Shown here piece by piece: positions 13,737-56,188 of a DNA stretch of 64,000 nt. Both the position numbers and the translations under genes were made by a program. The notes under the pieces are model-generated. The model was not told the DNA's origin and made no database searches. It saw only the letters and a program-made list of their open reading frames with translations. How positions within the stretch are numbered: the first letter of the stretch is position 1; the number at the start of each line of letters is the position of its first letter. Source of the DNA: Candidatus Kerfeldbacteria bacterium (lineage in GTDB: Bacteria > Patescibacteriota > Patescibacteriia > UBA9570 > XYC2-FULL-38-9); assembly GCA_016182555.1 (NCBI GenBank), contig JACPGJ010000008.1, positions 532,753 to 596,752 on the forward strand, written 5' to 3'.

Positions 13737-14969
13737 CTAAAATTGAGCAGTAATCGCGTAAATAGGCATCAAAATACCTAATACCAACACCAAAATACCC
13801 GCTCCTAAGAGAATAATAATCACTGGTTCAATTAAACTCACCAATGCACCGGTTAAACTATTCACCTCTCCCGTATAAAAATCAGCGACTTTAGTAAGAA
13901 TTTGATCCAATCTTCCCGTTTCCTCGCCCACATTCATCATTTGCGTCATCATCGGTGGGATATATTTGCTTTTTCCTAAAGCGGACGAGAGCGAGTGACC
14001 GGCTTCCACATCTTTTCGGACTTGAAGCAAAATCTGTTTATAGGTAGCATTACCCACAATATCACTAATAATTTCAATAGAACGATTCACGGGCACACCG
14101 GCAGCAAGGAGATTGGCCATACTTCTGCTCATACGCGCCAAATAAATTTTGCGGAAAATATTTCCAATAACGGGAATATGCAACAACCCTCGATCTAAAA
14201 AATATTGCCCCTGTGGACGAGAGCGCAGCACGGTATACACGACGATCAAAATGACAACGAAAGATAACAGCACCCACCAATACTGCTGAAAGGCTGTACT
14301 GACGGTAATCAATGCACGCGTAGCCCAAGGTAATTGCGCACCGGAGGAAGCCACCACATCCAATAATTTCGGTAGCACATAAATCATCATAAAAATAAAA
14401 ATTCCTACCAACACAACAACAATAAACGCTGGATAGATCAACGCACTAATCATACGAGATACCAATGCGTAATCTTTTTCTTTTTGATCAGCCAAATACG
14501 TCAGTACATCATCTAATTGCCCAGTGGTTTCTCCGGCGCGAATCATATACACAAAAAAATCATCGAAAATATGGCTATGCCGATGCAACGATGAAGATAG
14601 GCGCGCCCCTCCGTCTACTTCATTGGCAACATCGGTGATTACTCGGCGCAGTACCGGCGACTCTGTTTGCTTAGCAAGAATTCGCAACGCACGAACAATC
14701 GGCACCGTGGCGGAAATAAGCACCGCCAGCTGCCGAGAAAAAACCACCACATCTTTTGTTTTTACACGTTCGGTCAACCGTTTCCAATTAAATCCAATAC
14801 GCCGCGTCCCTTGTTCTTGTAAAAAAATAACGATCAAATTTTTTTCACGCAGCATTTCTTGGGCCACGGTGAGCGATGGAGCATCAAGCTCCCCTTCTAT
14901 CGAACGTCCAGCCTGGTCTTTTGCTTGATAGGTAAATTGTGGCATAGAAGAACAGTGACGAATAATCAA
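13737..14969 (-). CDS. pilC: type IV pilus platform protein (GspF family)
   Basis: Two GspF-type repeats with three TM segments; alternative start at 14945 (MPQFTYQ...). Confidence 0.9.
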   Translation of the reverse strand: MIIRHCSSMPQFTYQAKDQAGRSIEGELDAPSLTVAQEMLREKNLIVIFLQEQGTRRIGFNWKRLTERVKTKDVVVFSRQLAVLISATVPIVRALRILAKQTESPVLRRVITDVANEVDGGARLSSSLHRHSHIFDDFFVYMIRAGETTGQLDDVLTYLADQKEKDYALVSRMISALIYPAFIVVVLVGIFIFMMIYVLPKLLDVVASSGAQLPWATRALITVSTAFQQYWWVLLSFVVILIVVYTVLRSRPQGQYFLDRGLLHIPVIGNIFRKIYLARMSRSMANLLAAGVPVNRSIEIISDIVGNATYKQILLQVRKDVEAGHSLSSALGKSKYIPPMMTQMMNVGEETGRLDQILTKVADFYTGEVNSLTGALVSLIEPVIIILLGAGILVLVLGILMPIYAITAQF

Positions 14970-16073
14970 TTAGCGAAAAAGCGCCGGGTTTTGTGCAAAA
15001 TGCATAGCCACATCACGACTCACAATTCCCCGAGAAACGGCCTCTGCGAGGGCAATATCCAAACTACGTATTCCTGGCTCACGAGAAGTATAGAGAATAT
15101 TGTTCAATTGCAACAGGTCACCTTTTTGAATAATAGTGCGAATCGATTCGTTTGGTATCATCACCTCGGCAATCATGGCTCGATCTCCACTGACGGTATT
15201 CACGCGACGCTGATTAATAACCCCAACGAGTGTATGGGCAAGCATCATGCGTATTTGCTGTTGTTCGATATCTGTAAACCGATAAATAATATCACTCAAT
15301 ACGCCCACAATAGCACTGGCAATGGCGGGAACAAATACGGTCTTCCCTGCAGCTGCCAAAGAGAGAGCAGCGGTATACGCTTGCGGTGAATCTAAGGCCG
15401 AGAGCATAACCACATCGACATCTTCTTGCGCAACAAATTGTAATGCAGATTCCACACTTGCCACATCTTTGCCCACTTCACGTTGTTCAATGACGCAGCG
15501 CTGATCGTTAAAGAGAAATTCTACGGGCTGTTCAATAGTGACGATATGCTTGGCCGCGGTTTGATTCAAATAATCCACAAAACTGGCTAGGGTTGTTGAT
15601 TGTTCAGCATTCGCTGTGCCAATAACCAATACCAACCCGGCAGAGACGGTCGCTAACTGTTGTGCAGCAGCCGGCAATCCCAAAGCATTCAATGGTGGTG
15701 GGGCTAGTGGAATAAGCGTGAGCGCAGCGGAGAGATGCCCTTGCTGGTAAAACACCGCAATTTTAAATCGTTTTTTATTTTCTAATGATTTAGCTACAGT
15801 GATTTGTTTCTCGCGCTGCAAACGTTCTTGCTCTGCTGGGTCTAACCAAGAGATCACGACTTCCTGTACAAAACTGGGCGTTAACACATTTTGCTCTGGC
15901 AATGCGACCAACTGTTCGTTCACCCGAATCATCGGTGGGTTGCCCACAGACAAATGCAATACCGTAGCATGATAGGTTTCAGCCAGAGACAATATTTTCT
16001 GTATCGTAAATTGGTCAGCAGTATTCATATCTGTTGCATCATTATTCTGCGCCCACGGTCCAAACTTCTTCAA
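14970..16073 (-). CDS. PilT-like hexameric ATPase paralogue with degenerate catalytic motifs (predicted pseudo-ATPase)
   Basis: Overall PilT-like fold (HLSVGNPPMIRV; ...STTL...IVTIEQPVEF...). Four motifs substituted relative to canonical PilT-family ATPases: Walker A GPTGSGKST becomes GTANAEQST, Asp-box D becomes Q, Walker B GE becomes SA, His-box H becomes K. The neighbouring PilB retains all of them. Confidence 0.8.
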   Translation of the reverse strand: MKKFGPWAQNNDATDMNTADQFTIQKILSLAETYHATVLHLSVGNPPMIRVNEQLVALPEQNVLTPSFVQEVVISWLDPAEQERLQREKQITVAKSLENKKRFKIAVFYQQGHLSAALTLIPLAPPPLNALGLPAAAQQLATVSAGLVLVIGTANAEQSTTLASFVDYLNQTAAKHIVTIEQPVEFLFNDQRCVIEQREVGKDVASVESALQFVAQEDVDVVMLSALDSPQAYTAALSLAAAGKTVFVPAIASAIVGVLSDIIYRFTDIEQQQIRMMLAHTLVGVINQRRVNTVSGDRAMIAEVMIPNESIRTIIQKGDLLQLNNILYTSREPGIRSLDIALAEAVSRGIVSRDVAMHFAQNPALFR

Positions 16074-17790
16074 TAGATGTTAAGCCCCGCAATGCGGCCA
16101 ATAATCCATTTTGTTTAATCGTCACCATGCCTTGATGACGCAATTCTTCTTCCACCACTGCTGGCGTGTGAATATCACCGGCAGCAATAATAGCCCGTAA
16201 CCGATCAGTCACTTCTACCGTCTCCGCCACGGCTAAACGGCCTTTGTACCCTGTATCTTCGCAGTGCTGACACCCTTTTCCTTTAAATACCTTCAACGGC
16301 GGTTGTAAGACGATGCCTTTTGGAAGTGAAGATTTCGGTATACGTTCCAACTCAGCCAAAATTTGCGATTCTAATAATGGCGGAACAATTTCTGGTACCA
16401 AACACTCCATGCAATTGCGCCGAACCAGGCGTTGAGCGATCACCAGGTTCAATGCGGAAGAGATTAAAAATGGTTCAATACCCATATCAATTAAACGCGG
16501 GATTGCACCAATCGCATCATTGGTATGTAATGTGCTCAACAACATATGTCCAGTGAGCGCTGCATGAATCGCCAATTCAGCCGTTTCATTATCGCGAATT
16601 TCTCCTACCATAATAATATCTGGATCTTGGCGCAAAATAGAGCGTAATCCACGTACAAAGGTCAACCCAATTTCTGGCCGTACTTGTGACTGTGCAATCC
16701 CGGTCATGTGGTATTCGACCGGATCTTCTAGCGTAATAATATTGCGTTCTTCGTTATTGAGAATTTGCAACATCGAATAGAGTGTGGTGGATTTACCAGA
16801 ACCCGTGGGACCAGTCATGAGAATCATGCCATGCGGACGTTGGAGGTGTTCATGAATGACACTCAAGTTGCGGTCAGCGAACCCGAGGTCTTCTAAGGTC
16901 TGCAATCCAGATTCTTGATCTAAAATACGCAACACCACTTTTTCATGGTCAATCAACGGCATGGTAGACACACGAAAATCGATCTGCCGCCCATCAATTT
17001 TCATACGAAAACGGCCATCTTGTGGCAGGCGTGTTTCATCTAATTTTAAATTGGCTAACACTTTAATACGTGCCACTAAGGAATTGTGCACATTTTTTGG
17101 TAACTGCAATGACGTGTGCAAAATACCATCCACACGATATCGCACACGCGTGCCATCATCGTGGGGTTCAATATGCACGTCTGATGCGCTGCCTTCCACG
17201 GCGTAACGTAAAATAACCGCCACCATTTTTGAAACCGGTGCATTTTTTACCGATGGATCGGCGTCTGCTAATTCTTCTGCTTCATCTTGCAATACATCAA
17301 CAAGATCTGTGTTTTGTTCCTTTAACGCTTGCGCCACCTCTTTGGTTAAATTTGCATACTGATGCAGCACCGCACGGAAACTTGATTCAGAAGTCAAAAA
17401 ATATTTAATTTGAAGATGATCTTTGCGTGCAATAAAATCAAGCGCTTCAATCGCTTTATAATCTTGCGGGTCCACCATGGCCACAGATAACTCACTTCCG
17501 TTTCTGGCCCACGGCACGACACGATAATTCTCCGCAATATCTGGCGTGAACGCATTCAATATTTCGCTGGGAATATCTTGGTCCAGTAATGAAATATAGG
17601 GTACACGCAACACCATCGCTTTCACTTGCGTAAGCTCCTCTTCATTCACGATATGTTCTTGCACCAATACCGTTAACAAATCAACGCCAGTACGTTGAGA
17701 TTCTATTTGCGCTTGTGTAAGCTGTGCAGGAGTAATGAGTTGGCGCGCCTGCAATTGCTGAACAATGGTCATGATATCTGCAAGTTTCAT
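16042..17790 (-). CDS. pilB: type IV pilus assembly ATPase (GspE family)
   Basis: 582 aa with an N-terminal GspII/MshEN-like domain, intact Walker A GPTGSGKST, Asp box, Walker B DIIMVGEIRD, His box and a tetracysteine CxxC...CxxC motif. Confidence 0.92.
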   Translation of the reverse strand: MKLADIMTIVQQLQARQLITPAQLTQAQIESQRTGVDLLTVLVQEHIVNEEELTQVKAMVLRVPYISLLDQDIPSEILNAFTPDIAENYRVVPWARNGSELSVAMVDPQDYKAIEALDFIARKDHLQIKYFLTSESSFRAVLHQYANLTKEVAQALKEQNTDLVDVLQDEAEELADADPSVKNAPVSKMVAVILRYAVEGSASDVHIEPHDDGTRVRYRVDGILHTSLQLPKNVHNSLVARIKVLANLKLDETRLPQDGRFRMKIDGRQIDFRVSTMPLIDHEKVVLRILDQESGLQTLEDLGFADRNLSVIHEHLQRPHGMILMTGPTGSGKSTTLYSMLQILNNEERNIITLEDPVEYHMTGIAQSQVRPEIGLTFVRGLRSILRQDPDIIMVGEIRDNETAELAIHAALTGHMLLSTLHTNDAIGAIPRLIDMGIEPFLISSALNLVIAQRLVRRNCMECLVPEIVPPLLESQILAELERIPKSSLPKGIVLQPPLKVFKGKGCQHCEDTGYKGRLAVAETVEVTDRLRAIIAAGDIHTPAVVEEELRHQGMVTIKQNGLLAALRGLTSIEEVWTVGAE

Positions 17791-18710
17791 GGTGTCGTGT
17801 TCGTTACCGGTAACAATACAGGGATTGGCGTAAATGGTTCTGTATTGCCAGGAATAGGCATAGAAAACGCATCACTCGATGGATTACCAGAAGCATCCAC
17901 TGCAACCAACGTATAATAATAATGCGCATTTGGTACAGCAGAGGTGTCTGTGAATGCTGGTATCTCACTCTGTTTGACCGTAGCAATTTGTTCACCACGA
18001 ATACCATACGTAGTTGAACGGAAAATATTCAGATGATCAAAATCAACAACCGTCGGATTCACCCATTGTATATGAACACCATATTGATTATCGCTCTGTG
18101 TCGATGTAATGATAATGTCCGTGGGAGCCAATGGTGGAATGGTATCCGCCGGTATAACACTAACGGTTGGCGCTGTATCACTGGTGTACTCTATTTCGTT
18201 AAACGTATTCACTGAAACAACACGATACGTGTAGGTCTGAGCGTTATCCAGCCCGGTATCCAGAAATGATTCTTCGATAATATGTGTCGCAACTAACTCA
18301 TCGGCGGTCGGTATATTTGCATGAGTTGTACTGCGGTAAATGTTGACGGACTCAACACCATCTGGGCGGGTCCAAAACAACACGGCTTCTCCTCCAATGC
18401 GGGTATTGAACGCCGTGAGGTGTGTAACCGGCGCAGGATGCTGTGAGTGTAAAAATGTTGCTTCTACTTGAGGCTGGGTCTGTGGCACAGCATGCACATC
18501 TAATGCCAACACTTGTTCATGTAACAATGTGTCTGTTGGAAAATCACTCACCACTCGACCAGTTGTTGTATCTTCACTGGTGATTAACCCAAATGCTGAT
18601 TGATTATATCGAGTGGTATAGATCGCCAGACCAGCTAATACCAAAATGAGAGAGATCAATGTCCATTCTTTTGCGGTGAACGATGGTAGCCAATGACGTT
18701 TGTGGTTCAT
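17787..18710 (-). CDS. membrane-anchored protein with two fibronectin type III-like domains (pilus-locus component)
   Basis: N-terminal TM helix; two FN3-like signatures (YTYRVVSVN, YYYTLVAVDASGNPS); stop overlaps the pilB start. Confidence 0.6.
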   Translation of the reverse strand: MNHKRHWLPSFTAKEWTLISLILVLAGLAIYTTRYNQSAFGLITSEDTTTGRVVSDFPTDTLLHEQVLALDVHAVPQTQPQVEATFLHSQHPAPVTHLTAFNTRIGGEAVLFWTRPDGVESVNIYRSTTHANIPTADELVATHIIEESFLDTGLDNAQTYTYRVVSVNTFNEIEYTSDTAPTVSVIPADTIPPLAPTDIIITSTQSDNQYGVHIQWVNPTVVDFDHLNIFRSTTYGIRGEQIATVKQSEIPAFTDTSAVPNAHYYYTLVAVDASGNPSSDAFSMPIPGNTEPFTPIPVLLPVTNTTP

Positions 18711-19396
18711 AAAGATGAAGGCGTGGAAGGTGATTTTCGATAATACGTTTCTAACTGTACAGCAAAACTACTGGAGGACGGTGAATAACTCAGGTTGCGT
18801 AGATCAAGCAAGGGAGTAGATGATTGTAACAGATTCAAAAAATCTTTTAGTGCATCGTATGAACCAGTCGCGCTCTCAATATTCAAGGTAATTACCGCTC
18901 GACCAATGCTTGTTGGAAGAGTGGTAATCGCTGCGGCATCGGTATTCCCAGATGTATTTGCGTTTGCATTCGTTGCGCTACTAGCCGACTCCACCACATC
19001 AACGCTCAGCACGTGCATAGAAGCCGCGTCTGCTAACCGTTGCAAATGAGCCATTGTTGCGGTTGCATCTATCCCTTCTGGTAACACCACATTCATTTGT
19101 TGTAGGCGCTCCGTATCTACCGCTGCATACGCATCATTCATCTGTTTCAATTGATCCAAATATTGTTGGCGTTGATTCCGTTCTTCCATTGCTGCTTGTT
19201 GCCCAATGAAACCACGTTCTTGCAAATGTTCATACTGTTGCCGCAAAAATGTGAACCAACCAATGGCACACAACAGGAGTATTTCCATGCATACTAACAA
19301 GCGATAGTGACGATGAATAAATGGATAGCGCACAACAATTTTTGAATTATTCTCCGGCATAGGCAGTTGGGGTTGATTGAAATAATGATGGCGCAA
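18707..19396 (-). CDS. pilO: PilO-like inner-membrane pilus alignment protein
   Basis: Single TM, then a coiled-coil segment and a C-terminal globular region; located between pilN and pilB. Confidence 0.55.
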   Translation of the reverse strand: MRHHYFNQPQLPMPENNSKIVVRYPFIHRHYRLLVCMEILLLCAIGWFTFLRQQYEHLQERGFIGQQAAMEERNQRQQYLDQLKQMNDAYAAVDTERLQQMNVVLPEGIDATATMAHLQRLADAASMHVLSVDVVESASSATNANANTSGNTDAAAITTLPTSIGRAVITLNIESATGSYDALKDFLNLLQSSTPLLDLRNLSYSPSSSSFAVQLETYYRKSPSTPSSL

Positions 19397-20501
19397 ACTG
19401 AACAGTCATGCTAGAACGCACATTCTGCTGCTTGTGCTGCGTGTCATCGGATGTTGTATCTGCTTTTGTGGCTGTTGTGCCTTCGCCGGCGTCTGTTGCT
19501 GAAGTGACTTCTACTTCTTCGACCATAGGAGAATGACGAAATACATTGACTTGCGCTTCTAACTGTTCATAATCTGGAGCGATGACATCAAAAACAAAAC
19601 GACCAGACGTCGCAGAACCGGAGAGCGATTCATAATAAATGGTAGGAAAAGTCAGCTCTTCTACAGTTGAAAAAAATGGCGTCCAATACACATGCGCATC
19701 GAGCACCGTTGCTAAATCTTCTAGCTGTGAATGCAGTGTTCGTGCACTATTAGCTACTGGAATGAACCCCGCAATTTGATTGTTTATATGATCAATATCT
19801 TGATGAATTTGCAGCGTATTTGTAAGTACACGATGTTCGTAAATGTTTAACCCAGCAACAGTAGAAAGCATCAGGCCAATAACCACAATCGCTATATAAA
19901 GAAAATCGTGCATACTATGCGCGCCGTTGCCGTTAGATGAACCGTGTGTGTCATGTGGGATAAGATTAACTCCAAAATTGATAATACGGTCAACTGGAAA
20001 TTGCTGTTTTGCGTGACGATTTTTTCTTTGCCGTTTCGCATGAGGGCCCTGCTGCGCTGGCATTTCCTGCGGTAAAGGATGTGGCGCCGCCTTCGGTATC
20101 TCGGGCAATGGCGGCAAGGATGATGGAGTAGCCAGTGCCGCATGGAGTAAATCTGTTTCTGCTTCTTCTTTCCTGTGCTTTGGCGCAAGGTGAACCATAG
20201 CTGGTACGGGCGAAGACACAGCTGGGGTGGGTTTAATTGCAGCGGATAACGACGGAAGAGCGACAGGTCGTTGTTGGGGTTGAAGTTGGGGTTGTGCTGG
20301 TGTGTTGGGGTGTTTCTTCCTTCTCCACAACAAAAATGACCGTTTTTCGCTTGGTGCGTTCAACGGATGAACAGGAGAAGATATTGGCGCATTCATTTTC
20401 TCGCCGCTGGTATACTCAATAGCACCTCGATCACCACTGGTTGAATGAGGATGTGTTTTTCCCTTTCTGGAACCAGAAGAAAGAAAATCGATATCTCCCA
20501 T
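19347..20501 (-). CDS. pilN: PilN-like protein with a long Pro/Gln-rich N-terminal extension
   Basis: Conserved PilM-binding-like INLIP motif immediately before the single TM (FLYIAIVVIGLMLSTVAGL), preceded by about 190 aa of low-complexity P/Q-rich sequence. Confidence 0.6.
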   Translation of the reverse strand: MGDIDFLSSGSRKGKTHPHSTSGDRGAIEYTSGEKMNAPISSPVHPLNAPSEKRSFLLWRRKKHPNTPAQPQLQPQQRPVALPSLSAAIKPTPAVSSPVPAMVHLAPKHRKEEAETDLLHAALATPSSLPPLPEIPKAAPHPLPQEMPAQQGPHAKRQRKNRHAKQQFPVDRIINFGVNLIPHDTHGSSNGNGAHSMHDFLYIAIVVIGLMLSTVAGLNIYEHRVLTNTLQIHQDIDHINNQIAGFIPVANSARTLHSQLEDLATVLDAHVYWTPFFSTVEELTFPTIYYESLSGSATSGRFVFDVIAPDYEQLEAQVNVFRHSPMVEEVEVTSATDAGEGTTATKADTTSDDTQHKQQNVRSSMTVQFAPSLFQSTPTAYAGE

Positions 20502-20503
20502 AG

Positions 20504-21745
20504 TTAACTAATTTCTCGCATTGCAAGACCAGTGGCAACCGCGAGTCGAGGTCCAATTGTTTGTAAAATCGGTTTCAAATCGACAGGGTACATTACACGC
20601 GCCCAAGGATCACCAATATATACTTTCATATTCAATACTTGGTGGAGATATTGGGTAATATTCGGCAACCACGCAGACCCACCAGCGAGAATAATCTTTT
20701 CAATTCCCAAGTTGCCTTGGTTTTGATACAGATTCAAGACATATTTAATCTCATTGATGATGGACGCGACCATAAATTCAATCCGTTTCGGTATTTGACC
20801 ACCACTACCAGAGTCTGCCGCTTGCTGTGCAAGGCCAAAATCGCGTTTGAATTGTTCAGCGCGCTCCATATCAATGTTTAAACTATTCGCAATTGCTTTG
20901 GTAATGGTACGACCACCAATATCAATGCTGCGGTTAATTAACGGAACAGAATCAACAACAACGCTAATCGTTGTCGCAACGGCACCGATATCAATAATCA
21001 TAATTGGCGACTTATCGTTGCCAATAAGCGAACGTTCCAACGCAAAACTTTCTGTTTCCAAGCTTACTAAATTCAGTTTCGCTTCTTTAAAAATTTCGAC
21101 ATAGCGCGTAACCAAATTTTTGGGTGCAGCCGTGAGTAAAATCTTCAAAAATTTCTTTTTCTCTTTAGACGTAATAGTGGCGGGTTGTTGTGCTCCAGCG
21201 CCGCCAGACAGAGTATTCGGGTAAGCTTGCGGCATTCCTGGTTGTTGCACTGGCATACCAGGCATTTGGTTCATGCCGGCCATCGGTTGGCCTGGCGTCA
21301 TGTTGGTTGCTGGGCTTATTCCAACGCTCGGATTTGCAGAAAACTGAGTAGAAATATCGCTATCAGCAAGAATTTTCCAATCCAGAATCATTTCTTCTAA
21401 TGGCATCGGTACAAACTTTTTGGCTTCCCATTGCACCGCTGCAGTAAGCTCTTTTTTGGACATCTCCGGCAGGTGAATGATGGAGGTAAATACCGTATAA
21501 CTCGGAAGCGCAGCAATCGCATTTGTGGATGTCGTTCGTGCAGCTTCTCGTACACGCTGCAAAGCGGAGATAATTGCTTCACGCGTTTCTTTACTATCGG
21601 ATGTGAGAATTTTATTTTCTTGCTCTAGGTAACCGTACGTTAATAACTTTGGGCGACCTTTATCATTTTGTAATTCCACCACTTTCAGGGCTGAATTAGC
21701 AATATCAACACCTAAGTAACTTTCATTTGATCCAAACAATGACAT
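20504..21745 (-). CDS. pilM: actin-like ATPase-fold pilus protein
   Basis: PilM/FtsA-like N-terminus (LGVDIANSALKVVEL) with an inserted Met/Pro/Gln/Gly-rich linker. Confidence 0.85.
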   Translation of the reverse strand: MSLFGSNESYLGVDIANSALKVVELQNDKGRPKLLTYGYLEQENKILTSDSKETREAIISALQRVREAARTTSTNAIAALPSYTVFTSIIHLPEMSKKELTAAVQWEAKKFVPMPLEEMILDWKILADSDISTQFSANPSVGISPATNMTPGQPMAGMNQMPGMPVQQPGMPQAYPNTLSGGAGAQQPATITSKEKKKFLKILLTAAPKNLVTRYVEIFKEAKLNLVSLETESFALERSLIGNDKSPIMIIDIGAVATTISVVVDSVPLINRSIDIGGRTITKAIANSLNIDMERAEQFKRDFGLAQQAADSGSGGQIPKRIEFMVASIINEIKYVLNLYQNQGNLGIEKIILAGGSAWLPNITQYLHQVLNMKVYIGDPWARVMYPVDLKPILQTIGPRLAVATGLAMREIS

Positions 21746-21825: not shown

Positions 21826-23514
21826 TTATTGCCCGTTTTCAAAAATCGGCAGCGTCGAAGCGAAATCGCGAAGGCCCGGTGGGGTGTTCACCAATACACG
21901 ACCGTCGTAATATATGAACTCAGCTGGTTGGTCATCCCCGATTACTCCTTTATATGTACGCTGAAAATGAAATCCTTGTCCCATCATCAACCCATAAACA
22001 ACGAGCTGTGATGCGGAAGCGGGTTCTGTAGTGACCATGCCATTATTCACCACCCCATCACTTTGATCGGCATCACCAATAACGAAAAAAGAACCCACCA
22101 ACTGCGACACATTGGGCCCGATCGTCAGATTACCGCGAACAATCCAAGCAACAGAAGCCAAATTACTCACATCAACCAATGACGATTGTTCGTAAAAAAG
22201 ATTCGCATCAATTTCCAAGTTACCGTTAATCACAAACACGCCGGAACCGTCATAGTCTTTTCCGGTAGAGGAAAGCGCCGTGCCATTCAAAAACGTCATG
22301 GCATGATCAATAATCACGGTCGTATCTGTGGGTTCGTTCGCGTCGCCCAAAACATACACCTGTCCATCTAAAAATAAATTGCTCTCCAAATCATCAATAG
22401 TATCTAGGGTGGATACCTGGTCGTTGTACGCATTTTTATCGCGCTCATCCGTGGTGAGCAGTTTATCAAAATCTAACCGACCCAATTCACTACGATATTC
22501 ATTTTCACTGTTCGGCAAATTCAACGCACCATAGGTTCCAAGAGTACCATCCTCACCGACAGCGGTCGTAAAATTCACAAATTCACTTTCACCCGTGTCC
22601 GCATTGCCGACAATGAGAAACGTAGCGTTGTATTGCGTTGGAGATAAATCTCCATTCGGGTTGATAATACCACCAGCGGCATAAACGTCACCATTGATTG
22701 TCGACAGATAAGGATCATTCGGGTTTGATTCACTCGTACTCGGGAAAAAATTCATCCAACCCAACCCAACCGTTGGGTCATAACTTCCGCTGGGCACGGT
22801 TCCTCCACCCGAAAATACCCACCCGGAAAAGGAATTATTTGTATACAACAAACCAAATTCTTGATTATCTGCAGCATTTGTTCCTCGTAATAATACCCAG
22901 CCCCAATCATTATTCTTGTTGCTCGTGCCGAGAATCGTATCACCATAGGCAGCCAATGTTTCTAAACGTGCCCAACCCGAAATTTCTTTTTTATTGACGG
23001 TATCTACTTCAGCAGCGTGGCACGGTGGTGCCGGATATATGGAACCTGCTGGGCAATTTACCGTATCACCATAAGTGCTGCTATCTGGTAATGGATTTGG
23101 GTGAAAATTCAGCCAACCGGTGGATGCTGGCGGTGCTGAAGCACAAATTCCTTGACACGCAACGGCATCTGCGGCTCCTAACCACGCCCAGCCAGAAATA
23201 TACCCTGTATCGGTATCCACGTTCACTTTTGGGTAATTGCCTAAGCTACTATCACATGAATTATCGCTCGCACAATCGAGATGAATAAATCCAATAGCGG
23301 AATAATCAGAAGTACCGGTCGTCGTGTTCTGGTCAGCTGGTAGGCCAATCCATGCCCACGCACTAAATTCATCATACACTTGTTGGGCAGAAGCGCTGTC
23401 ATACGGAACGACAGTGACAACAAAAAATAACAATACAGCGAGTAAAAAATATTGTATGCGTATACGCGATATCAGCATATGCGTCATCATACGAAAAAAG
23501 GGAGGCCGTGGCAA
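21826..23514 (-). CDS. secreted protein with about seven spaced (S)GW(A/V)(W/F) repeats, directly upstream of pilM
   Basis: Signal peptide (several candidate Met starts). Repeats: FSAWAWIG, ISGWAWLG, STGWLNF, ISGWARL, DWGWVLL, FSGWVFSG, GLGWMNF. No recognisable enzyme motif. Confidence 0.6.
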   Translation of the reverse strand: MPRPPFFRMMTHMLISRIRIQYFLLAVLLFFVVTVVPYDSASAQQVYDEFSAWAWIGLPADQNTTTGTSDYSAIGFIHLDCASDNSCDSSLGNYPKVNVDTDTGYISGWAWLGAADAVACQGICASAPPASTGWLNFHPNPLPDSSTYGDTVNCPAGSIYPAPPCHAAEVDTVNKKEISGWARLETLAAYGDTILGTSNKNNDWGWVLLRGTNAADNQEFGLLYTNNSFSGWVFSGGGTVPSGSYDPTVGLGWMNFFPSTSESNPNDPYLSTINGDVYAAGGIINPNGDLSPTQYNATFLIVGNADTGESEFVNFTTAVGEDGTLGTYGALNLPNSENEYRSELGRLDFDKLLTTDERDKNAYNDQVSTLDTIDDLESNLFLDGQVYVLGDANEPTDTTVIIDHAMTFLNGTALSSTGKDYDGSGVFVINGNLEIDANLFYEQSSLVDVSNLASVAWIVRGNLTIGPNVSQLVGSFFVIGDADQSDGVVNNGMVTTEPASASQLVVYGLMMGQGFHFQRTYKGVIGDDQPAEFIYYDGRVLVNTPPGLRDFASTLPIFENGQ

Positions 23515-26126: not shown

Positions 26127-26200
26127 CATAATCATATCATTTTATTTGTTTTTTTATATCATTTATGATATATTTATTGCATAAAAATGATATCATTTGA
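26127..26200 (+). promoter_or_regulatory. operator-like palindromes upstream of the Fic/HTH gene
   Basis: ATATCATTTATGATAT (perfect 7-2-7 palindrome, 26156-26171) and AAATGATATCATTT (perfect 14-bp palindrome, 26184-26197), plus a further ATATCAT copy at 26133. Confidence 0.45.
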
Positions 26201-27267
26201 ACATATTCATGAACAAAACCATAACACTCAATAAACGACAGGATGCCATATTGGAATACATAAAAGAGCACGAACAAGCATCTATTGCAGAAATTTTTTC
26301 GTTTATTCAAAAAACATTCCATACTGTTGCAAAAATCACGATCAATAGAGATCTGAAAAAACTGATCAACACCGGTTGGGTTATCCCCCTGGGTGCTGGT
26401 CGGGCAGTGGTATATGAACTCTCACGAACGTATGCATTGCTCCAACCGATTGATGTTGAACACTATTTTTCGGTTGAGCCCGATCAACGCCGCATTCATG
26501 ACACATTTCAATTTGATATATTTTCACAATTGAACAATATATTCTCGGTTGAAGAATTGAACCAGCTGGAATTGTGGCAAAAAAAATATCGCCAAAAAAT
26601 ACAGCAACTCCCTCCAGATGCATTAAAAAAAGAATTCGAGCGCCTCACCATAGAACTCAGTTGGAAATCTTCAAAAATAGAGGGGAATACCTATACGTTA
26701 TTGGAAACAGAAGAACTGATACGTCGACAAAAACAATCTCCAAACCATACTGCTGAAGAAGCGATAATGATTCTCAACCACAAAAAAACATTAAATTATA
26801 TTCAACAAAATACTGAACAGTTTCATACGCTATCGCGCCACACGATTGAAGAGATTCATTCCTTACTGATTGATGGGTTAGGTGTTTCACGAAATGTGCG
26901 AAAAATTTTAGTACGCATTACGGGAACAACATATACTCCACTGGACAATGCATACCAAATTGAAGACGCGCTCGAACAGTTATGCAAACTCATAAACGCT
27001 ACACAAAATCCCTTCGAGAAAGCCGTGATCGCCATGCTCCTTATTGCGTATATCCAACCCTTCGTGGATGGAAACAAACGTACCAGTCGGTTGATTGGAA
27101 ATGCATTGCTCATGGCATACGATTGTTGCCCGTTATCGTATCGCAGCATGGATGAAATGGAATATAAAAAAGCAATGTTGTTATTTTACGAGCAACAACA
27201 CATTGTCTATTTTAAAAAACTATTCTTAGAACAGTACCATTTTGCGATTGATCATTACTTTGGGTAG
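26197..27267 (+). CDS. Fic/Doc-family protein with an N-terminal winged HTH and a substituted catalytic motif
   Basis: Core motif QPFVDGNKRTSR in place of canonical HPFx(D/E)GNGRxxR (Fic) or HxFxDGNKR (Doc). The track ORF starts at a TTG (26197); the first ATG is at 26209. Confidence 0.75.
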   Translation: MNIFMNKTITLNKRQDAILEYIKEHEQASIAEIFSFIQKTFHTVAKITINRDLKKLINTGWVIPLGAGRAVVYELSRTYALLQPIDVEHYFSVEPDQRRIHDTFQFDIFSQLNNIFSVEELNQLELWQKKYRQKIQQLPPDALKKEFERLTIELSWKSSKIEGNTYTLLETEELIRRQKQSPNHTAEEAIMILNHKKTLNYIQQNTEQFHTLSRHTIEEIHSLLIDGLGVSRNVRKILVRITGTTYTPLDNAYQIEDALEQLCKLINATQNPFEKAVIAMLLIAYIQPFVDGNKRTSRLIGNALLMAYDCCPLSYRSMDEMEYKKAMLLFYEQQHIVYFKKLFLEQYHFAIDHYFG

Positions 27268-27272
27268 AAAAA

Positions 27273-28133
27273 CTATTTTTCTATCATTCCCTCAATACGG
27301 CACATCGCCAGCCAAGTGTTTTGCAACAATGATGCCACGGTCATGGGACCAACCCCGCCAGGCACCGGGGTAATATACGCCGCTTTTTCAAACACCGTTT
27401 CATAATCAACATCACCCACCACGCGGCCCTTATGCTTACTAATCCCCGCATCAATCACCATCACTCCCTGTTTCACCATATCCGCGGTAATCAAATTCGC
27501 CACACCAGTTGCGGTAATTAAAATATCTGCTCGCTTGGTATGCTCCGCCAGCCCCTCGGTCAATTTGTGGCAGATGGTCACTGTTGCGCCGTGGTTTAAA
27601 AATAATTGAGCCGTCGGTTTGCCCACAATATTACTCGCGCCCACCATGACCACATGTTTGCCGCGCACATCCATTGGTGTCGATTTTACGAGTGTCCAAA
27701 TACCACGGGTTGTCGCAGGCATAAAATACGGTTTTCCAATCGACAGCCAGCCAACATTTGCCGGATGAAACCCATCCACATCTTTTCGTGGGTCAATCGC
27801 TTCCAAAATTTCATATTGGTTGATATGCGCGGGCAGCGGCAACTGTACCAAAATACCATGAATTTTTTTATTCCGATTCAGCTTATCAATGACACGTAAT
27901 AATTTTTTCTGACTAATGTCTTCCTCAAACTCACAGCTCTCCAACACCATGCCTACTTCCTGTGATGCCTGCGTTTTAAAATTCACATACATCTGTGACG
28001 CCGGATCTACCCCCACCAACACCACACCCAACCCAGGCTTTTTCCCCGACTTCGCAATCTTCCCTTTCAGCTCCATGCGTATCTTCGCTGCCAACCCCTT
28101 GCCATTTAAAATTTTTGTTATATGCTCATTCAT
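27273..28133 (-). CDS. folD: bifunctional methylene-THF dehydrogenase / methenyl-THF cyclohydrolase
   Basis: 286 aa; FolD-family motifs including DVDGF, GKPTAQLFLN and the conserved N-terminal ILNGKGLA segment. Start placed at MNEHITK (28131-28133). Confidence 0.9.
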   Translation of the reverse strand: MNEHITKILNGKGLAAKIRMELKGKIAKSGKKPGLGVVLVGVDPASQMYVNFKTQASQEVGMVLESCEFEEDISQKKLLRVIDKLNRNKKIHGILVQLPLPAHINQYEILEAIDPRKDVDGFHPANVGWLSIGKPYFMPATTRGIWTLVKSTPMDVRGKHVVMVGASNIVGKPTAQLFLNHGATVTICHKLTEGLAEHTKRADILITATGVANLITADMVKQGVMVIDAGISKHKGRVVGDVDYETVFEKAAYITPVPGGVGPMTVASLLQNTWLAMCRIEGMIEK

Positions 28134-28196
28134 AAGGCAGAGTATAGCAGAAAGTTCTCCGCTACTCAACATATCACCAGACCATAAATAACAACT

Positions 28197-29732
28197 ATGC
28201 TAGCAAGTGAATATCGACACGGACCACGCCCAACCCGCGAACAATCATCACCAGACGCTGCGGAACGCATGCTCATTCAAGCGGCAAAAGCAGGTGATAC
28301 CAATGCGTTAGGCACACTATGGCTGCGGCACGAAAAAAAATTACGCGCTGCTGTTTTGGCGCACGTACGGAATAAAACGCTTGCAGACGACATTATGCAA
28401 GATGTGTTTATACAAGCCATGACACATATCACAGACTTCCAAACCGAATCCAGTTTTCATGCATGGATTATGGCTATTGCACGGAATAAGATTATTGATC
28501 GTTCACGAAAAAAATCAGAACGGCTCACTCATTCTCTTGATGCGATAAATACACAACGTGAAGAACGCGGTGAACCAACGGTGGAGCTTGCCGCTTCCGA
28601 AGAGCACGGCCTTGGTAAAAATACAGAAAATGATTTACTCGAAACTGAATCACGAGAGCAACTTCGTGCAGCGATCACCTATTTAAGCCCGGTATTACGT
28701 GATGTCGTTGAGTTATTCTATTTTCAACATACCCCCTATAAAGACATTGCAAAAATAATCGACATTCCACTCGGCACGGTGATGAGCCGGTTAAATGAAG
28801 CAAAGAAAAAATTACAAGAGGTATTAAAACGACACCAACACGCAGAATTTTCACAACGCATCCTTCCACAACACGCAGCGCTAGAAGAGGCCATTCAACA
28901 CATACCAAACGAACGCATGCGCAGAGTGATCTACTTGAGTGAAATACTCAAACTTCCACAAAAAGATATTATTCGACGCACAACATATTCAAAAGGCACC
29001 GTACAATATTGGATACAGCAATGGCGAACCGAATATATTTCCCCCGAACACGCAGCAGTGGCACAGAACAAACAAGCAGCATACCAAGAAGAATGGCAAA
29101 AAAAGATTCAACGATTACGCAACCCGCGTATACGAAAGGTGATGTACCTTACTAAGATTGAGGGAAAAACGCAGAAAGAAATTGCGACCATGATTGGCCT
29201 CTCTGAAACACAAGTAAATCATTATGCACAACTTGGTAAACTAGAACTGGCAACAATGACTGCTGCCAATGAAGCAGAAAACGAACAACGGATAGCACAA
29301 CTGAAAGAACAGATAGCGCGTATCACTCCTGATCAATTAAGAACGATATTGACATTAAAAATGATTGAAGGGAAAACCAATCGGGAAATCGGTGAACGCT
29401 TAGGTGTATCAGCGGGAACAATTTTTAACCGTCTGCAAGAAGGGCAACAACTCTTAAACACCCTGCGTTCTGCAGAAGAAATTGCGCGTACTGAAAAAGA
29501 AAACAGGGAGAAAAAAGAACGGTTGGTTCGCGATATTGCACAAATGCCGAATGAACGCACCCGACAACTGCTAAGCTTATATTTGTTGGAAGCAAAAACG
29601 AGTGAAGAGATAGGCACGCTATTCCATACCGCACCACAAAATATTCGGCGTCAATTACAACGCGCGCAAGCAGAATTGCGAGCACAGCAAGCGACATCAA
29701 CCAGCTCTCACCAGAACCAAGAAGCGGCATAA
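28197..29732 (+). CDS. ECF-type sigma factor with five tandem sigma-4 (region 4.2-like HTH) modules
   Basis: Sigma-2 region (DIMQDVFIQAM...FHAWIMAIARNKIIDRSRKK), then a first sigma-4 (VELFYFQ...DIAKIIDIPLGTVMSRLNEAKKKL), followed by four more HTH modules of the same pattern (IYLSEILKLPQKDI..., MYLTKIEGKTQKEIATMIGLSETQV..., LTLKMIEGKTNREIGERLGVSAGTI..., LSLYLLEAKTSEEIGTLFHTAPQNI...). Confidence 0.75.
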   Translation: MLASEYRHGPRPTREQSSPDAAERMLIQAAKAGDTNALGTLWLRHEKKLRAAVLAHVRNKTLADDIMQDVFIQAMTHITDFQTESSFHAWIMAIARNKIIDRSRKKSERLTHSLDAINTQREERGEPTVELAASEEHGLGKNTENDLLETESREQLRAAITYLSPVLRDVVELFYFQHTPYKDIAKIIDIPLGTVMSRLNEAKKKLQEVLKRHQHAEFSQRILPQHAALEEAIQHIPNERMRRVIYLSEILKLPQKDIIRRTTYSKGTVQYWIQQWRTEYISPEHAAVAQNKQAAYQEEWQKKIQRLRNPRIRKVMYLTKIEGKTQKEIATMIGLSETQVNHYAQLGKLELATMTAANEAENEQRIAQLKEQIARITPDQLRTILTLKMIEGKTNREIGERLGVSAGTIFNRLQEGQQLLNTLRSAEEIARTEKENREKKERLVRDIAQMPNERTRQLLSLYLLEAKTSEEIGTLFHTAPQNIRRQLQRAQAELRAQQATSTSSHQNQEAA

Positions 29733-34960: not shown

Positions 34961-35659
34961 GTGTATCATGACATGATGAAAAATATTTTACAATTACAAA
35001 CATATTTGCAGGAACAACGAATACACGGCTTAGCCGTGGATATTGATGAAACGCTTTCCTGGACCATTGGATACTGGGTTGAACAAATGCAGATGCATTT
35101 TGGAAACCCTGAACAATTGAGTGTGCAAGAACTCGTTGCAAAATATCAGTATACGCAAAACGTGCCCTATTGGCAGACAGAAGAAGCATTACAGTGGATG
35201 GAAGATCAACGGAATTCAGATGAATTACAAACAAAACTACCGCTTATTCCAGATTCAAATACGACGCTTCGGGAGATCAATAACATTATTCCTGTGGTTG
35301 CCTATATAACTATTCGACCAGAATCTGTGGTGAACGGGACACAACACTGGTTGAATGCGCATGGCTTCCCGTCAGCAGAGATTATTGCTCGCCCGAGCAA
35401 CATTCCAACGAACAAAGGAAATCAATGGAAAGCAGACACGCTCCAACAATTGTATCCGCAGGTGATTGGTATTATTGATGATAGCCCACATGTGGTGGAA
35501 TCATTATCAGCAGATTATCCAGGAGAAGTATATTTTTATAATACGGCGAAACCAAAAAGAACAGATATTCGTATTATCCCCTGCCCCACCTGGCAAGATG
35601 TTCTCACGCATTGCAAGAAAAACGTGAACAAGGCGACACAAGTGATCGCAATGGATTAA
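34961..35659 (+). CDS. HAD-like hydrolase resembling 5'(3')-deoxyribonucleotidase (NT5C family)
   Basis: VDIDETLS (DxDxT) and GIIDDSP motifs. Confidence 0.55.
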   Translation: MYHDMMKNILQLQTYLQEQRIHGLAVDIDETLSWTIGYWVEQMQMHFGNPEQLSVQELVAKYQYTQNVPYWQTEEALQWMEDQRNSDELQTKLPLIPDSNTTLREINNIIPVVAYITIRPESVVNGTQHWLNAHGFPSAEIIARPSNIPTNKGNQWKADTLQQLYPQVIGIIDDSPHVVESLSADYPGEVYFYNTAKPKRTDIRIIPCPTWQDVLTHCKKNVNKATQVIAMD

Positions 35660-36885
35660 AGTTCACTCCAAGGAATAGCGGTAATATTCTCCGCTAATTT
35701 CTCTTTTCTCTCACCCATGGTAATGACATATCCTTCTTGCGCTTGCTTTGGATAATCATTCAAAAAAATCTTCAACCCTTGTAATTCTGAATCAACAACA
35801 GTTTTTGAACTTTTAATTTCAATCGGAATCACCTTGTCGCCCATATCAATAATACAGTCCACTTCCGCACCAGTCGATGTTCTCCAGAAACAGACACGAT
35901 AATTTTTATTCAACACACGTACGCGGCGAATAATTTCCAACATGACGGCATGTTCAAACAACGTTCCTTTCTGTGTATTGATTGTTTCGTGCTCTAGCGG
36001 AAAACGAGCCAAAGCATTACGCACGCCGATATCAAAAAAATAATATCGCGATGAAGAAAGAATACGCTTACGGGCATTTTTCAAATATGGTTCGACACGT
36101 TCAATAATCAACGTGTCTTCTAATACCTGATAAAATTCTTTCACCGCCGGCAAGCTTACTCCGGATTCATTGGATAATTTTGTTAAATTTGGATTGGTAC
36201 CAGATTCCACTGCAGCCAATTCTAAAAACCGCGAGAACGCTCCTATTTTACGCAATACCGCTTCTGCACGAATCTCTTCTTCCAAATATATTTCTGTATA
36301 CGCACGGAGCACATCTCCTCGCTCTTGTTGAGGTAATTGAATGATTCCGGGCAGAGAACCAAAAATCAACGAATCTAAAAAAGAAAAAGATCGGTTGTCA
36401 TTAATATTGGCAAGTGCAATCGGGTCTATTGTATTCTCTTTGATCCACCCCAATTCACCCCAGAGGAGAGGATCCATAAAAAATCGCTTAATACGCCCGG
36501 GTAATAAATTTGCGCCACTACGTCGTAATTTTCTTGCAGAAGATCCGGTCAATACACAATAGGCTTTGTGCTGGTCAATCAATAACTGCACGGCATCAAA
36601 CAGCTCTGGTATTTTTTGCGCTTCATCTATATAAACGAGCGGAGTATATTTCAATGCTTCTACTTGGCGAATAATTTTGCCCGGATCTTTTTCCAGATCT
36701 ATACGCACCGTGGGGTCTTGAAGGAGGTATTCCAAACGCTGAGTAACCGCTGTAATCATCGTATTCACAAGAGTGGTTTTACCCACCTGGCGGGGACCTA
36801 AAATTAAACAGGACTGCTTTTTCGCTATACATTGCTGTAATTCAGCATCAATATATCGTAACAACACTTTATTTTTACCTTGCAT
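35656..36885 (-). CDS. AAA+ ATPase with a DUF4143-type C-terminal domain
   Basis: Walker A GPRQVGKTT, Walker B VYIDEAQ, about 400 aa; paralogous to the ORF at 41023-42381. Confidence 0.8.
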   Translation of the reverse strand: MQGKNKVLLRYIDAELQQCIAKKQSCLILGPRQVGKTTLVNTMITAVTQRLEYLLQDPTVRIDLEKDPGKIIRQVEALKYTPLVYIDEAQKIPELFDAVQLLIDQHKAYCVLTGSSARKLRRSGANLLPGRIKRFFMDPLLWGELGWIKENTIDPIALANINDNRSFSFLDSLIFGSLPGIIQLPQQERGDVLRAYTEIYLEEEIRAEAVLRKIGAFSRFLELAAVESGTNPNLTKLSNESGVSLPAVKEFYQVLEDTLIIERVEPYLKNARKRILSSSRYYFFDIGVRNALARFPLEHETINTQKGTLFEHAVMLEIIRRVRVLNKNYRVCFWRTSTGAEVDCIIDMGDKVIPIEIKSSKTVVDSELQGLKIFLNDYPKQAQEGYVITMGERKEKLAENITAIPWSEL

Positions 36886-36953
36886 AAATAAAGTGTAGTT
36901 TATATTTGTATATTTGTCAAGATTTATTACGCGACCACAATCACTGACGCAGA

Positions 36954-38000
36954 CTACAGTGAATCACTTGAAGTTGTAAGAAGTTTTTTATACAGCGGGC
37001 TATGCTGATTCTTATCGCATATTGCCCATACTTGAAATGCAATATGGTGGGCAGCTTTTTCCAGTTCAACTTTTTCTGTCATGGGAGCAATATCAATCGA
37101 TTGTTTTTTTCCTTCTTTAAGAAGCAGACAATCAATTTCATATCCATAACTATCTTCATCAGAACCATTTTTATCCCACGCTACATTTTCTTTTTGAATA
37201 TCTAATTGTTTACAAAAAAATATTGTGCCTAAAAAATATTTTTCATTCAGTATCCGTTGAATGTGTTCTATTTCTTCATTAAAATATGGCGGCATGGAAT
37301 CAACTGTTTTCGTGTTACTCAGCATAAGTTTCAACGCAAAAATCGTATCACTCTTCAGCTTGGCTCGTGTGGAATTTTTTTGTGCATCAGTCAGCAATTC
37401 CCCTAAACCATCAAGAATGTGCTTATTATCCATTTTTTCAAGCAGTTGAATGCATTCGGCTAATACGTTTGCAAATGGCATTTTTGCACGCTGCTCCACA
37501 ATATTTTTATTGATCCCCCAACCATTCTTTGCAAAAAACCGAACATCAAAAATATCACGGCTAGTTTTTCCCACACGTTCAAGCATTGCCATAAGTTTAT
37601 TGGCAAACATATCTTCCTGTACCATGACGGACATGGAAATACCGAGAGCTGTTTTCATTTCGTACCGAGAGCCAAATTTTCTTCGATTCACTTCCACTTT
37701 TATTTTTGGCGCTCCGGGGGTATGCGAAATAATAAGACAAAGATTAAACCGTTTTATACGTGAATACGTGATCGTTCCATAATTGGAAACAATTTTTTGT
37801 AACTTTTCAAATACAGCAGATTCTTTTTGTTCATCTAGCAAATCAAAATCCAAATCAACAGAGTCACGGTTTAACCCATAAAACAATAGCGCGGCGGTAC
37901 CACCTTTAAAACCCAAACACGTGGCAAGGGTCGTGTCAGAATACACATCTTTTAAAATATAGAGTAATAAGGCTTTGTGTTTTGAGTAGTCCGTAGTCAT
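36954..38000 (-). CDS. AbiEii-family nucleotidyltransferase toxin (type IV toxin-antitoxin / abortive infection)
   Basis: LGFKGGTAAL and RDSVDLDFDL motifs characteristic of DUF1814/AbiEii. Its ATG overlaps the stop of the upstream AbiEi-like gene as ATGA. Confidence 0.7.
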   Translation of the reverse strand: MTTDYSKHKALLLYILKDVYSDTTLATCLGFKGGTAALLFYGLNRDSVDLDFDLLDEQKESAVFEKLQKIVSNYGTITYSRIKRFNLCLIISHTPGAPKIKVEVNRRKFGSRYEMKTALGISMSVMVQEDMFANKLMAMLERVGKTSRDIFDVRFFAKNGWGINKNIVEQRAKMPFANVLAECIQLLEKMDNKHILDGLGELLTDAQKNSTRAKLKSDTIFALKLMLSNTKTVDSMPPYFNEEIEHIQRILNEKYFLGTIFFCKQLDIQKENVAWDKNGSDEDSYGYEIDCLLLKEGKKQSIDIAPMTEKVELEKAAHHIAFQVWAICDKNQHSPLYKKLLTTSSDSL

Positions 38001-38596
38001 GCATTTAGGCGTTTATAGTATTCAAAATATTCTTTCACTTTTTTTTCCATTCTTTTATTGTGGTAAATGGGTACCAGCTCAAAAACAGCTTCCCAATTCA
38101 ATGTATCTATATTATCAAAATGGTAATCCTTACTAATATACATTCTATCTAAAAACGCTCTTTCTGCTGTTGCTATAGCATAACCACCAGACTGTTGAAC
38201 TCCAGCTGTATTACTTAATACATAGTCTTTCATTCGCACATAAGAAATTTTTTGGCCATCAACAACAATTTCACGCGTCACATAGGATGCAACAAAAATA
38301 TTGTTATAATATTGAAAATTTATTCCTGCGCGAGTAAGCACTGTTTCAAAGCTGATATATGCGGGAGTATAGATTCGAGTCGCCAATTCAAAACGATCAT
38401 AACGTATGTCTTTAGCATAAAAACCACGTCGTATTCGTAGTAACTTTCCCGCTTGAACATATTTATGTAACCTGTTCGTGATCGTCGCCTCTCGCTCTTC
38501 ACCCCATAACAAAGCCACGTCTTTCGTTGAAAAGACGGTTTGAGGAGATCGGAGTAAAACCTCTACATATTCACCTTTTATTGCTTTTTTATCCAT
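37997..38596 (-). CDS. AbiEi-family antitoxin / transcriptional regulator
   Basis: About 200 aa protein with an N-terminal wHTH-like region, translationally coupled to the AbiEii gene. Confidence 0.65.
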   Translation of the reverse strand: MDKKAIKGEYVEVLLRSPQTVFSTKDVALLWGEEREATITNRLHKYVQAGKLLRIRRGFYAKDIRYDRFELATRIYTPAYISFETVLTRAGINFQYYNNIFVASYVTREIVVDGQKISYVRMKDYVLSNTAGVQQSGGYAIATAERAFLDRMYISKDYHFDNIDTLNWEAVFELVPIYHNKRMEKKVKEYFEYYKRLNA

Positions 38597-56102: not shown

Positions 56103-56188
56103 TGGTGCCGGAGGAGAGACTCGAACTCTCATGTCTTGTGGACACAGCGTTCTGAACACTGCGTGTATACCAATTTCACCACTCCGGC
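56103..56188 (-). tRNA. tRNA-Leu (anticodon CAG), class II with long variable arm, CCA encoded
   Basis: Manual fold: acceptor GCCGGAG/CTCCGGC, D-loop with GG, anticodon stem CAGTG/CGCTG, loop TTCAGAA (U33, CAG, A37), long variable arm, T-arm AGTTCGAGTCTCT, 3' ACCA. Confidence 0.85.

Follow-up and report, generated by a model that had tools for sequence, protein, structure and literature searches.

A single gene on the plus strand (28197..29732) of a 64,000-nt stretch of DNA from Candidatus Kerfeldbacteria bacterium (GCA_016182555.1, contig JACPGJ010000008.1, positions 532,753 to 596,752 of the forward strand; the whole stretch is referred to here as the window) encodes a real and intact group-4, or extracytoplasmic function (ECF)-type, sigma factor, and its product almost certainly carries a sigma-2 domain followed by five sigma-4 domains. 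The assignment of the whole gene is based on the list of open reading frames (ORFs), Pfam and NCBIfam. The ORF comprises 511 amino acids (aa) plus a stop codon with zero internal stops, and its product is identical to the NCBI protein MBI2411549.1 (P0001), which comes from a Kerfeldbacteria metagenome-assembled genome (MAG) of the Patescibacteria/Parcubacteria group.

The N-terminal part of the protein has the layout of an ordinary ECF sigma factor. A leader that includes the start of region 2.1 (aa 1-36, 28197..28304, delimited by alignment, with a low predicted local distance difference test (pLDDT) score at aa 1-9) precedes the sigma-2 domain (aa 37-112, 28305..28532), which is identified by alignment with E. 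coli sigmaE (1or7), by pLDDT values of 94-97, and by a Pfam Sigma70_r2 match at aa 42-107 (E 6.7e-14, 51.9 bits versus a cut-off of 24). Within sigma-2, the segments for core binding (DIMQDVF) and for reading of the -10 element (FHAWIMAIARNKIIDRSRKK) are canonical. The linker that connects sigma-2 to sigma-4 (aa 113-149, 28533..28643) is 37 aa long, acidic with a net charge of -7, and predicted to be largely disordered, with pLDDT below 50 at aa 124-141. It leads into the first sigma-4 unit, R1 (aa 150-212, 28644..28832), a canonical domain by its Sigma70_r4_2 score (52.2 bits) and by alignment with region 4 of sigmaE, and presumably responsible for binding to the beta-flap and the -35 element. 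Residues 20-212 align across sigma-2, linker and sigma-4 with E. coli sigmaE (1or7, E 6.6e-14), AlgU, SigW and SigH. The features of the ECF family are thus present in the core, namely sigma-2, a sigma-4 after a short linker, and no match to region 1.1 or region 3; Sigma70_r1 and Sigma70_r3 are absent from the 25 best Pfam matches (to E 0.015, with seven weaker families beyond).

Downstream of R1, the protein continues with four sigma-4-like helix-turn-helix (HTH) units. These are R2 (aa 222-284, 28860..29048), the most diverged of the set, R3 (aa 296-356, 29082..29264), R4 (aa 362-424, 29280..29468) and R5 (aa 437-499, 29505..29693), followed by a polar tail (aa 500-511 plus the stop codon, 29694..29732), recognised from its sequence and from low pLDDT at the C-terminal end. 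Against the whole protein, Sigma70_r4_2 matches in 5 stretches (E 1.7e-40), as does the NCBIfam model TIGR02937 (sigma70-ECF; 176.9 bits versus a cut-off of 42.9). The subfamily model TIGR02985 also passes (135.6 versus 126.4), with a score that is summed over the five stretches and that the repeats have probably raised, and all NCBIfam equivalog models fall far under their cut-offs. In single-unit scans against Sigma70_r4_2 (gathering score 25.7), R3 (32.3 bits), R4 (37.9 bits) and R5 (27.2 bits) joined R1 above the threshold, giving four of the five units. In the case of R2, the single-unit score is 19.8 bits (E 6e-4), under the cut-off and tied with HTH_23; R2 has the four-helix layout in the structure models, and scores 98 bits against a five-unit profile that was made from these very units. 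That profile finds exactly five non-overlapping copies in the sigma ORF and zero in the other ORFs of the window. On aa 213-511, all Pfam matches are to HTH or sigma-4-type families.

Structure prediction points to the same count. The full-length AlphaFold2 model, built from a 76-sequence alignment, has a mean pLDDT of 84.1, with most of the units between 80 and 96 and each unit predicted to adopt the four-helix sigma-4 layout. When the extension was modelled alone, pLDDT fell to 67 while the secondary structure was the same as in the full-length model, and the best fold matches in the PDB were sigma-4 domains. For the ECF core, the top Foldseek matches in the PDB are all ECF sigma factors, with sigma-2 superposing at a template modelling score of up to 0.89 relative to the target. 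In both models, a continuous long helix runs from the recognition helix of one unit into helix 1 of the next (aa 192-234, 337-375 and 406-448), the exception being the R2-R3 spacer, where the helix is broken at a Pro; the R4-R5 spacer is helical and 47% Glu, Arg and Lys. A coiled coil or an unrelated HTH family was considered for the extension and rejected, sigma-4 being the best match by both sequence and fold, with R2 alone ambiguous by sequence.

The first-pass annotation of this gene had described a sigma-2 of normal type followed by one sigma-4 and then four additional HTH units of sigma-4 type, and had proposed domain counting and structure prediction as checks. Pfam, NCBIfam, the single-unit scans and the predicted fold all bear out that description: five units are found, as opposed to one sigma-4 plus a coiled coil, and five four-helix units of sigma-4 type are seen in the model. 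The HTH pattern quoted for every unit (L..h.G.T..EIA...G.S..TV) needs qualification, being a good fit in R1, R3 and R4 and only a loose fit in R2 and R5.

Intactness, age and rarity of the array

A frameshift or an assembly fusion had been named as an outcome that would undo the five-unit description, and no sign of either was found. The suspicion is a reasonable one in that the sequence comes from a MAG and repeats are a classic source of misassembly, which could fuse genes or inflate a repeat. However, the reading frame is unbroken, codon-position guanine-plus-cytosine content is even along the gene and across its units, and no direct, inverted or tandem DNA repeats were found within the gene above short chance-level matches (direct repeats being at most 14-25 nt long and 72-86% identical). 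In addition, the window agrees over 21,536 bases, with 1 mismatch, with the Logan assembly of run SRR12113422, although this assembly was possibly made from the same reads as the MAG. An assembly or frameshift artefact is thus very improbable, and a recent repeat or misassembly was rejected on the 16-28% pairwise identity among the five units, the lack of DNA repeats and the matching Logan assembly.

The same observations indicate the age of the array. Because the units are only 16-28% identical, no repeat is visible in the DNA, and the second assembly is the same, the five-unit array is, as judged from sequence, an old internal duplication, and neither an artefact nor a coiled coil. The relationships among the units fit such an origin. 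For R2, R3 and R5, other units rank among the best matches; the closest relatives of R3 are R4 and R5 of the same protein, and the best match of R5 is the second unit of a distant relative, P0005, described below. R1 has ordinary ECF sigma-4 domains as its nearest neighbours, and R4 is the unit nearest to the ordinary sigma-4 consensus. The recognition helices of the five units are polar and aromatic and differ from one another, that of R2 being QYWIQQWRTEY.

The array is exceedingly rare. In a word-indexed search of 5.8 billion clustered proteins, two unrelated ECF fusions were found besides the protein itself. When 1.84 billion representatives were searched exhaustively with phmmer, 72,870 matches reached E <=1e-3, of which two only, the protein itself and a protein designated P0004, were at E <=1e-30. 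Domain architecture was checked in the best 150 of the 72,870 phmmer matches, and weaker proteins with several sigma-4 domains may exist below these; within this set, more than one sigma-4 by the unit profile was found in two proteins, P0005 and P0004. The five-unit protein is a singleton, with no orthologue carrying the same array in the 5.8 billion clustered proteins or among the best 150 phmmer matches. Searches with the extension only gave no match other than the protein itself in the 5.8 billion proteins, the GTDB genomes, or the phage and plasmid collections. A profile of the extension units run against the 5.8 billion proteins yielded 131 candidates, none of which scored, a result that says little as the source protein itself was missed. 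Lastly, no second sigma-4 unit was found in 167 ordinary ECF loci taken from family-pattern scans (80 from GTDB genomes, 80 from metagenomes and 7 from IMG/VR).

By sequence, P0005 and P0004 are distant relatives of the Kerfeldbacteria protein. P0005 (384 aa, Logan SRR24315801) combines sigma-2 with three sigma-4 units. P0004 (410 aa, Logan SRR22387796, locus L003, 9208-10440) is arranged as sigma2-sigma4-sigma2-sigma4, with Sigma70_r2 and Sigma70_r4_2 each matched twice in Pfam and two complete ECF modules that are not recent duplicates of one another. At 27-33% identity they are the closest among the best 150 matches, sharing with the Kerfeldbacteria protein the N-terminal leader, a GDT.AL..LW motif, and the multiplication of sigma domains within one chain. 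They differ from it in having fewer or other extra domains and other gene neighbourhoods. Both are singletons, and the neighbouring proteins on their contigs are likewise Logan singletons.

A viral contig (IMGVR_UViG_3300044518_000068, locus L168, 2931-4184) encodes another protein in which sigma-2-like sequence is combined with HTH domains of the sigma-4 superfamily in tandem. This 418-aa ORF shares about 30% identity with the sigma-2 region of the Kerfeldbacteria protein (residues 26-176 of the latter), and its sigma-2-like N-terminus precedes two HTH domains of GerE/LuxR type (77 bits, 2 stretches); locus L164 is similar.

Possible roles of the additional units

The order of the domains suggests where the additional units would lie. 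Sigma-2, the acidic linker and R1 would together act as an ordinary ECF sigma factor, binding core RNA polymerase and reading a promoter with -10 and -35 elements. In ECF holoenzyme structures such as 6jbq and 5zx2, the linker that joins sigma-2 to sigma-4 threads through the polymerase, and the C-terminus of sigma-4 faces the DNA upstream of the -35 element. Because the linker threads through the polymerase and R1 comes directly after it, only R1 should be able to occupy the beta-flap, and R2 to R5 would emerge from the C-terminal end of R1 on the side upstream of the -35 element. There they may serve as built-in extra DNA-binding modules, each touching upstream promoter DNA via its own recognition helix, in which case the array would resemble an in-cis activator or a reader of UP-elements that lengthens and sharpens promoter recognition, or tethers the sigma factor to its targets. 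That R2 to R5 act as extra DNA-binding modules contacting upstream DNA is the reading tentatively adopted here, at a confidence that stops short of probable, with a regulatory or mimic role close behind in likelihood. The more specific proposal of four additional -35-type readers that extend promoter recognition over several upstream elements, with sigma factor and activator combined in one polypeptide, would be a mode of recognition not known to be described for any sigma family, and is possible but doubtful.

Several properties of the units are consistent with contacts to DNA. All of the units are net positive (+2 to +5, pI 9.2-10.4), so that they match or exceed the median for 81 ordinary ECF sigma-4 domains (mean +1.2), although net charge is weakly informative on DNA binding, as ordinary sigma-4 domains span -4 to +8. 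The Arg in helix 2 (profile column 20) is invariant in 10 of 10 units of the three related proteins. In addition, of the 5 columns that are mostly Lys or Arg in ordinary sigma-4, R2 to R5 keep 2-3 and R1 keeps 3. The retention of two extra sigma-4 units in P0005 also counts as support, as do the upkeep of the fold through deep divergence and the absence of features pointing to another function, such as Cys, a transmembrane segment, a sensor or ligand-binding domain, or a co-transcribed anti-sigma candidate.

The array might instead be an evolutionary oddity, in which a sigma-4 duplication, or a read-through fusion of small sigma-4-like genes, is tolerated in a protein that works as a plain ECF sigma factor or is unused. 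The lack of any orthologue with the same array, on the searches described above, would fit such an origin. However, the duplications are old and the frame is nonetheless unbroken over all 511 codons, the curated cut-off is passed by four of the five units, and all are predicted to fold, whereas a neutral appendage of this age should have decayed. A sigma-4 signature still detectable by hidden Markov models, a confident fold at 16-28% identity, and an unbroken frame suggest selection on the fold as opposed to decay, and a tolerated oddity is thus considered unlikely.

A number of observations weigh against a DNA-binding role for R2 to R5. As the protein is a singleton, conservation of the array among orthologues does not speak for it. 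The -35 contacts of sigmaE (2h27) were mapped onto the units using the equivalents of what we take to be the contacting residues, R171, S172, R173, F175, R176 and R178; in this alignment, the recognition helices of R2 to R5 have lost most of them, with 1-2 positions basic per unit. The extra units of P0005 are not basic, with net charges of -2 and +2, and P0004 adds a whole sigma2-sigma4 module, of which the sigma-2 would be superfluous for an upstream DNA reader. No regularly spaced array of short repeats was found in the 64-kb window, a weak test given that the five recognition helices differ and that 64 kb were covered; as the helices differ, identical repeated -35 boxes are not the expected target. 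No significant common motif was found upstream of the three related genes. The predicted template modelling (pTM) score of 0.39 leaves the inter-domain arrangement, and the docking of the extension on the core, undefined. Lastly, the characterised C-terminal extensions of ECF sigma factors are all regulatory and none DNA-binding (PMC8999054, PMC7826278). Separately, AGAAAGTT and CGCTAC, which are common to the upstream regions of the window and of locus L002, were considered as shared elements and rejected, as chance alone would give about 0.4 such 8-mers and their spacing differs.

The precedent of the characterised extensions is suggestive of a regulatory, or autoinhibitory, extension, in which the extra sigma-4 copies would not bind DNA and would fold back on the sigma-2/sigma-4 core, or vie with R1 for the beta-flap, keeping the sigma factor inactive or tuning its activity until it is freed by a signal or partner. 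C-terminal extensions are known to modulate sigma activity, as in ECF41 and ECF42, and they accompany the absence of an anti-sigma factor (PMC7826278, PMC8999054), and no anti-sigma candidate adjoins the gene described here. Moreover, a copy of sigma-4 is an obvious competitor for the partner of the genuine sigma-4, and R2 to R5 depart from the canonical TV(K)SRL..AR pattern in their recognition helices. Against this stands the lack of any sensory element in the protein, which has no Cys, no ligand-binding domain, no TPR or SnoaL domain and no transmembrane segment. One inhibitory domain would also be enough, leaving the four kept copies with their helical spacers unexplained, and the AlphaFold models do not place the extension against the core with any confidence, which is weak evidence at a pTM of 0.39. 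An autoinhibitory or modulatory extension is the main rival explanation, though a rather doubtful one.

A related possibility is suggested by PhyR, whose sigma-like domain captures NepR. By analogy, R2 to R5 could act as an in-cis sigma mimic or decoy, capturing a partner in trans such as an unlinked anti-sigma factor or another regulator that binds sigma-4. However, no receiver domain or other switch is fused to the protein, no NepR-like or anti-sigma gene lies nearby, and the sub-threshold PhyR match (PhyR_sigma-like, 26.6 versus a cut-off of 27 in Pfam) merely reflects the similarity among sigma-4 domains. The regulatory logic of a permanently attached decoy is also not obvious, and a mimic or decoy role is therefore improbable.

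The implications depend on which of these roles applies. If the extra domains bind DNA, the promoter recognition of a sigma factor could be lengthened in a modular fashion. DNA readers of this kind may compensate for sparse transcription factors in the reduced genomes of the candidate phyla radiation (CPR), and would be relevant to transcription in CPR organisms, which have few regulators, and to the engineering of orthogonal ECF-based switches. Should the extra domains instead prove to be decoys or autoinhibitors, they would represent a new, self-contained means of sigma regulation. The practical weight of either outcome is limited, as the organism is uncultivated and the protein a singleton for which only two distant and dissimilar relatives were found.

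Gene setting and other features of the window

The sigma gene is monocistronic. Both of its immediate neighbours are on the opposite strand, with folD divergent 24 bp upstream and glyA convergent 3 bp downstream, and genes for Fic, YchF and a PfkB kinase lie beyond these two. No anti-sigma candidate gene is present in the neighbourhood of the sigma gene, and none is co-transcribed with it.

There is no clear Shine-Dalgarno sequence ahead of the ATG at 28197. Residues M1, R7, P10 and E23 of the leader are common to P0005 and P0004 in the alignment, and it is because of these invariant residues that the ATG is supported as the true start. On the folD side, the longest ORF (27273-28172) leaves a gap of 24 bp to the sigma start (28173-28196). 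As the FolD-like N-terminus (MNEHITKILNGKGLA) starts at the 14th codon of this ORF, the true divergent intergenic region between folD and the sigma gene is probably about 63 bp. Upstream of folD, a Fic/DOC-family protein of 356 aa is encoded at 26197-27267 with a TTG start at 26197, the recorded gene call being slightly later (352 aa).

Elsewhere in the window, a probable defence or toxin-antitoxin cluster lies at 35656-38596. It consists of an AAA_14/DUF4143 ATPase (35656-36885), an AbiEii-family toxin (36954-38000), and an ORF (37997-38596) that overlaps the toxin gene upstream, in the position of an AbiEi antitoxin, and for which no Pfam match is on record. A type IV pilus or type II secretion-like cluster occupies the minus strand at 13737-21745, and includes T2SSF, two T2SSE ATPases (one with MshEN), PilM_2, and several ORFs without a Pfam match. 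Three large ORFs, at 46813-49536 (906 aa), 21826-23514 (561 aa) and 51830-53218 (461 aa), have no Pfam family at E <=1e-5. The only Rfam or ARAGORN match in the window is a tRNA-Leu (CAG) on the minus strand at 56103-56188.

Comparison with known systems

Among alternative sigma factors, those of the ECF type form the largest family, and the Kerfeldbacteria protein belongs to it by its core, carrying five sigma-4 units where the two-domain definition of the family has exactly one. The canonical members, including E. coli sigmaE/RpoE, P. aeruginosa AlgU, B. subtilis SigW and M. tuberculosis SigH, share with it the core of sigma-2, linker and sigma-4, and its identity to other ECF cores is at most about 41% among the best 150 phmmer matches. 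They differ in having one sigma-4 and a length of about 170-220 aa, whereas some 300 aa more, with four further sigma-4 domains, are present here.

Long C-terminal extensions are themselves familiar in the ECF family, and those on record are SnoaL-like, TPR, WD40-like, Cys-rich, DUF1835, zinc-finger or anti-sigma-like, and transmembrane (PMC7826278, PMC8999054). For instance, SnoaL extensions are found in ECF41, ECF56, ECF294 and ECF295, TPR in ECF42, Cys-rich extensions in ECF238, ECF287 and ECF288, and transmembrane segments in ECF263, ECF48, ECF52 and ECF53, and it is with the lack of an anti-sigma factor that such extensions are associated (PMC7826278, PMC8999054). The Kerfeldbacteria protein resembles these groups in joining an ECF core to a long C-terminal extension with no adjacent anti-sigma gene. 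It differs from them in that the extension consists of sigma-4 copies only, with no match to SnoaL, TPR or DUF1835, or to any sensor or ligand-binding domain in Pfam, with 0 Cys, and with no predicted transmembrane helix (maximum Kyte-Doolittle 19-residue mean of 1.08).

Extensions made of sigma domains are absent from the extension types given in PMC7826278, PMC8999054 and PMC7671368. The last of these, a study of ECF evolution, describes gene duplications and the chance gain of extensions, and does not describe sigma-4 arrays. A full-text search of the literature found no description of tandem or additional sigma-4 domains in an ECF sigma factor, and although a cyanobacterial classification allows "duplicated essential domains", no tandem sigma-4 pattern was retrieved from its text or supplements. 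The suggestion in the first-pass annotation that no described ECF group has this architecture thus agrees with the classification and review literature, and with the near absence of relatives. ECF classification recognises a strict two-domain core and a few regulatory extensions, and the extension of four sigma-4 domains adds a type not previously listed for the family.

Outside the ECF family, comparison can be made with two kinds of protein. In PhyR of the Alphaproteobacteria, which is no sigma factor itself, one degenerate sigma2-sigma4 module is joined to a receiver domain, whereas the Kerfeldbacteria protein is a complete, canonical-looking sigma factor with no Response_reg match and no NepR-like gene nearby. 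In AraC/XylS proteins (with two HTH motifs), the Paired domain and Myb repeats, several helical HTH modules contact successive stretches of DNA. These proteins resemble the Kerfeldbacteria sigma factor in having several small HTH modules per chain and, by analogy, provide the model for the proposed contacts of R2 to R5 with upstream DNA. They differ in that their modules belong to other HTH families and are not part of a sigma factor.

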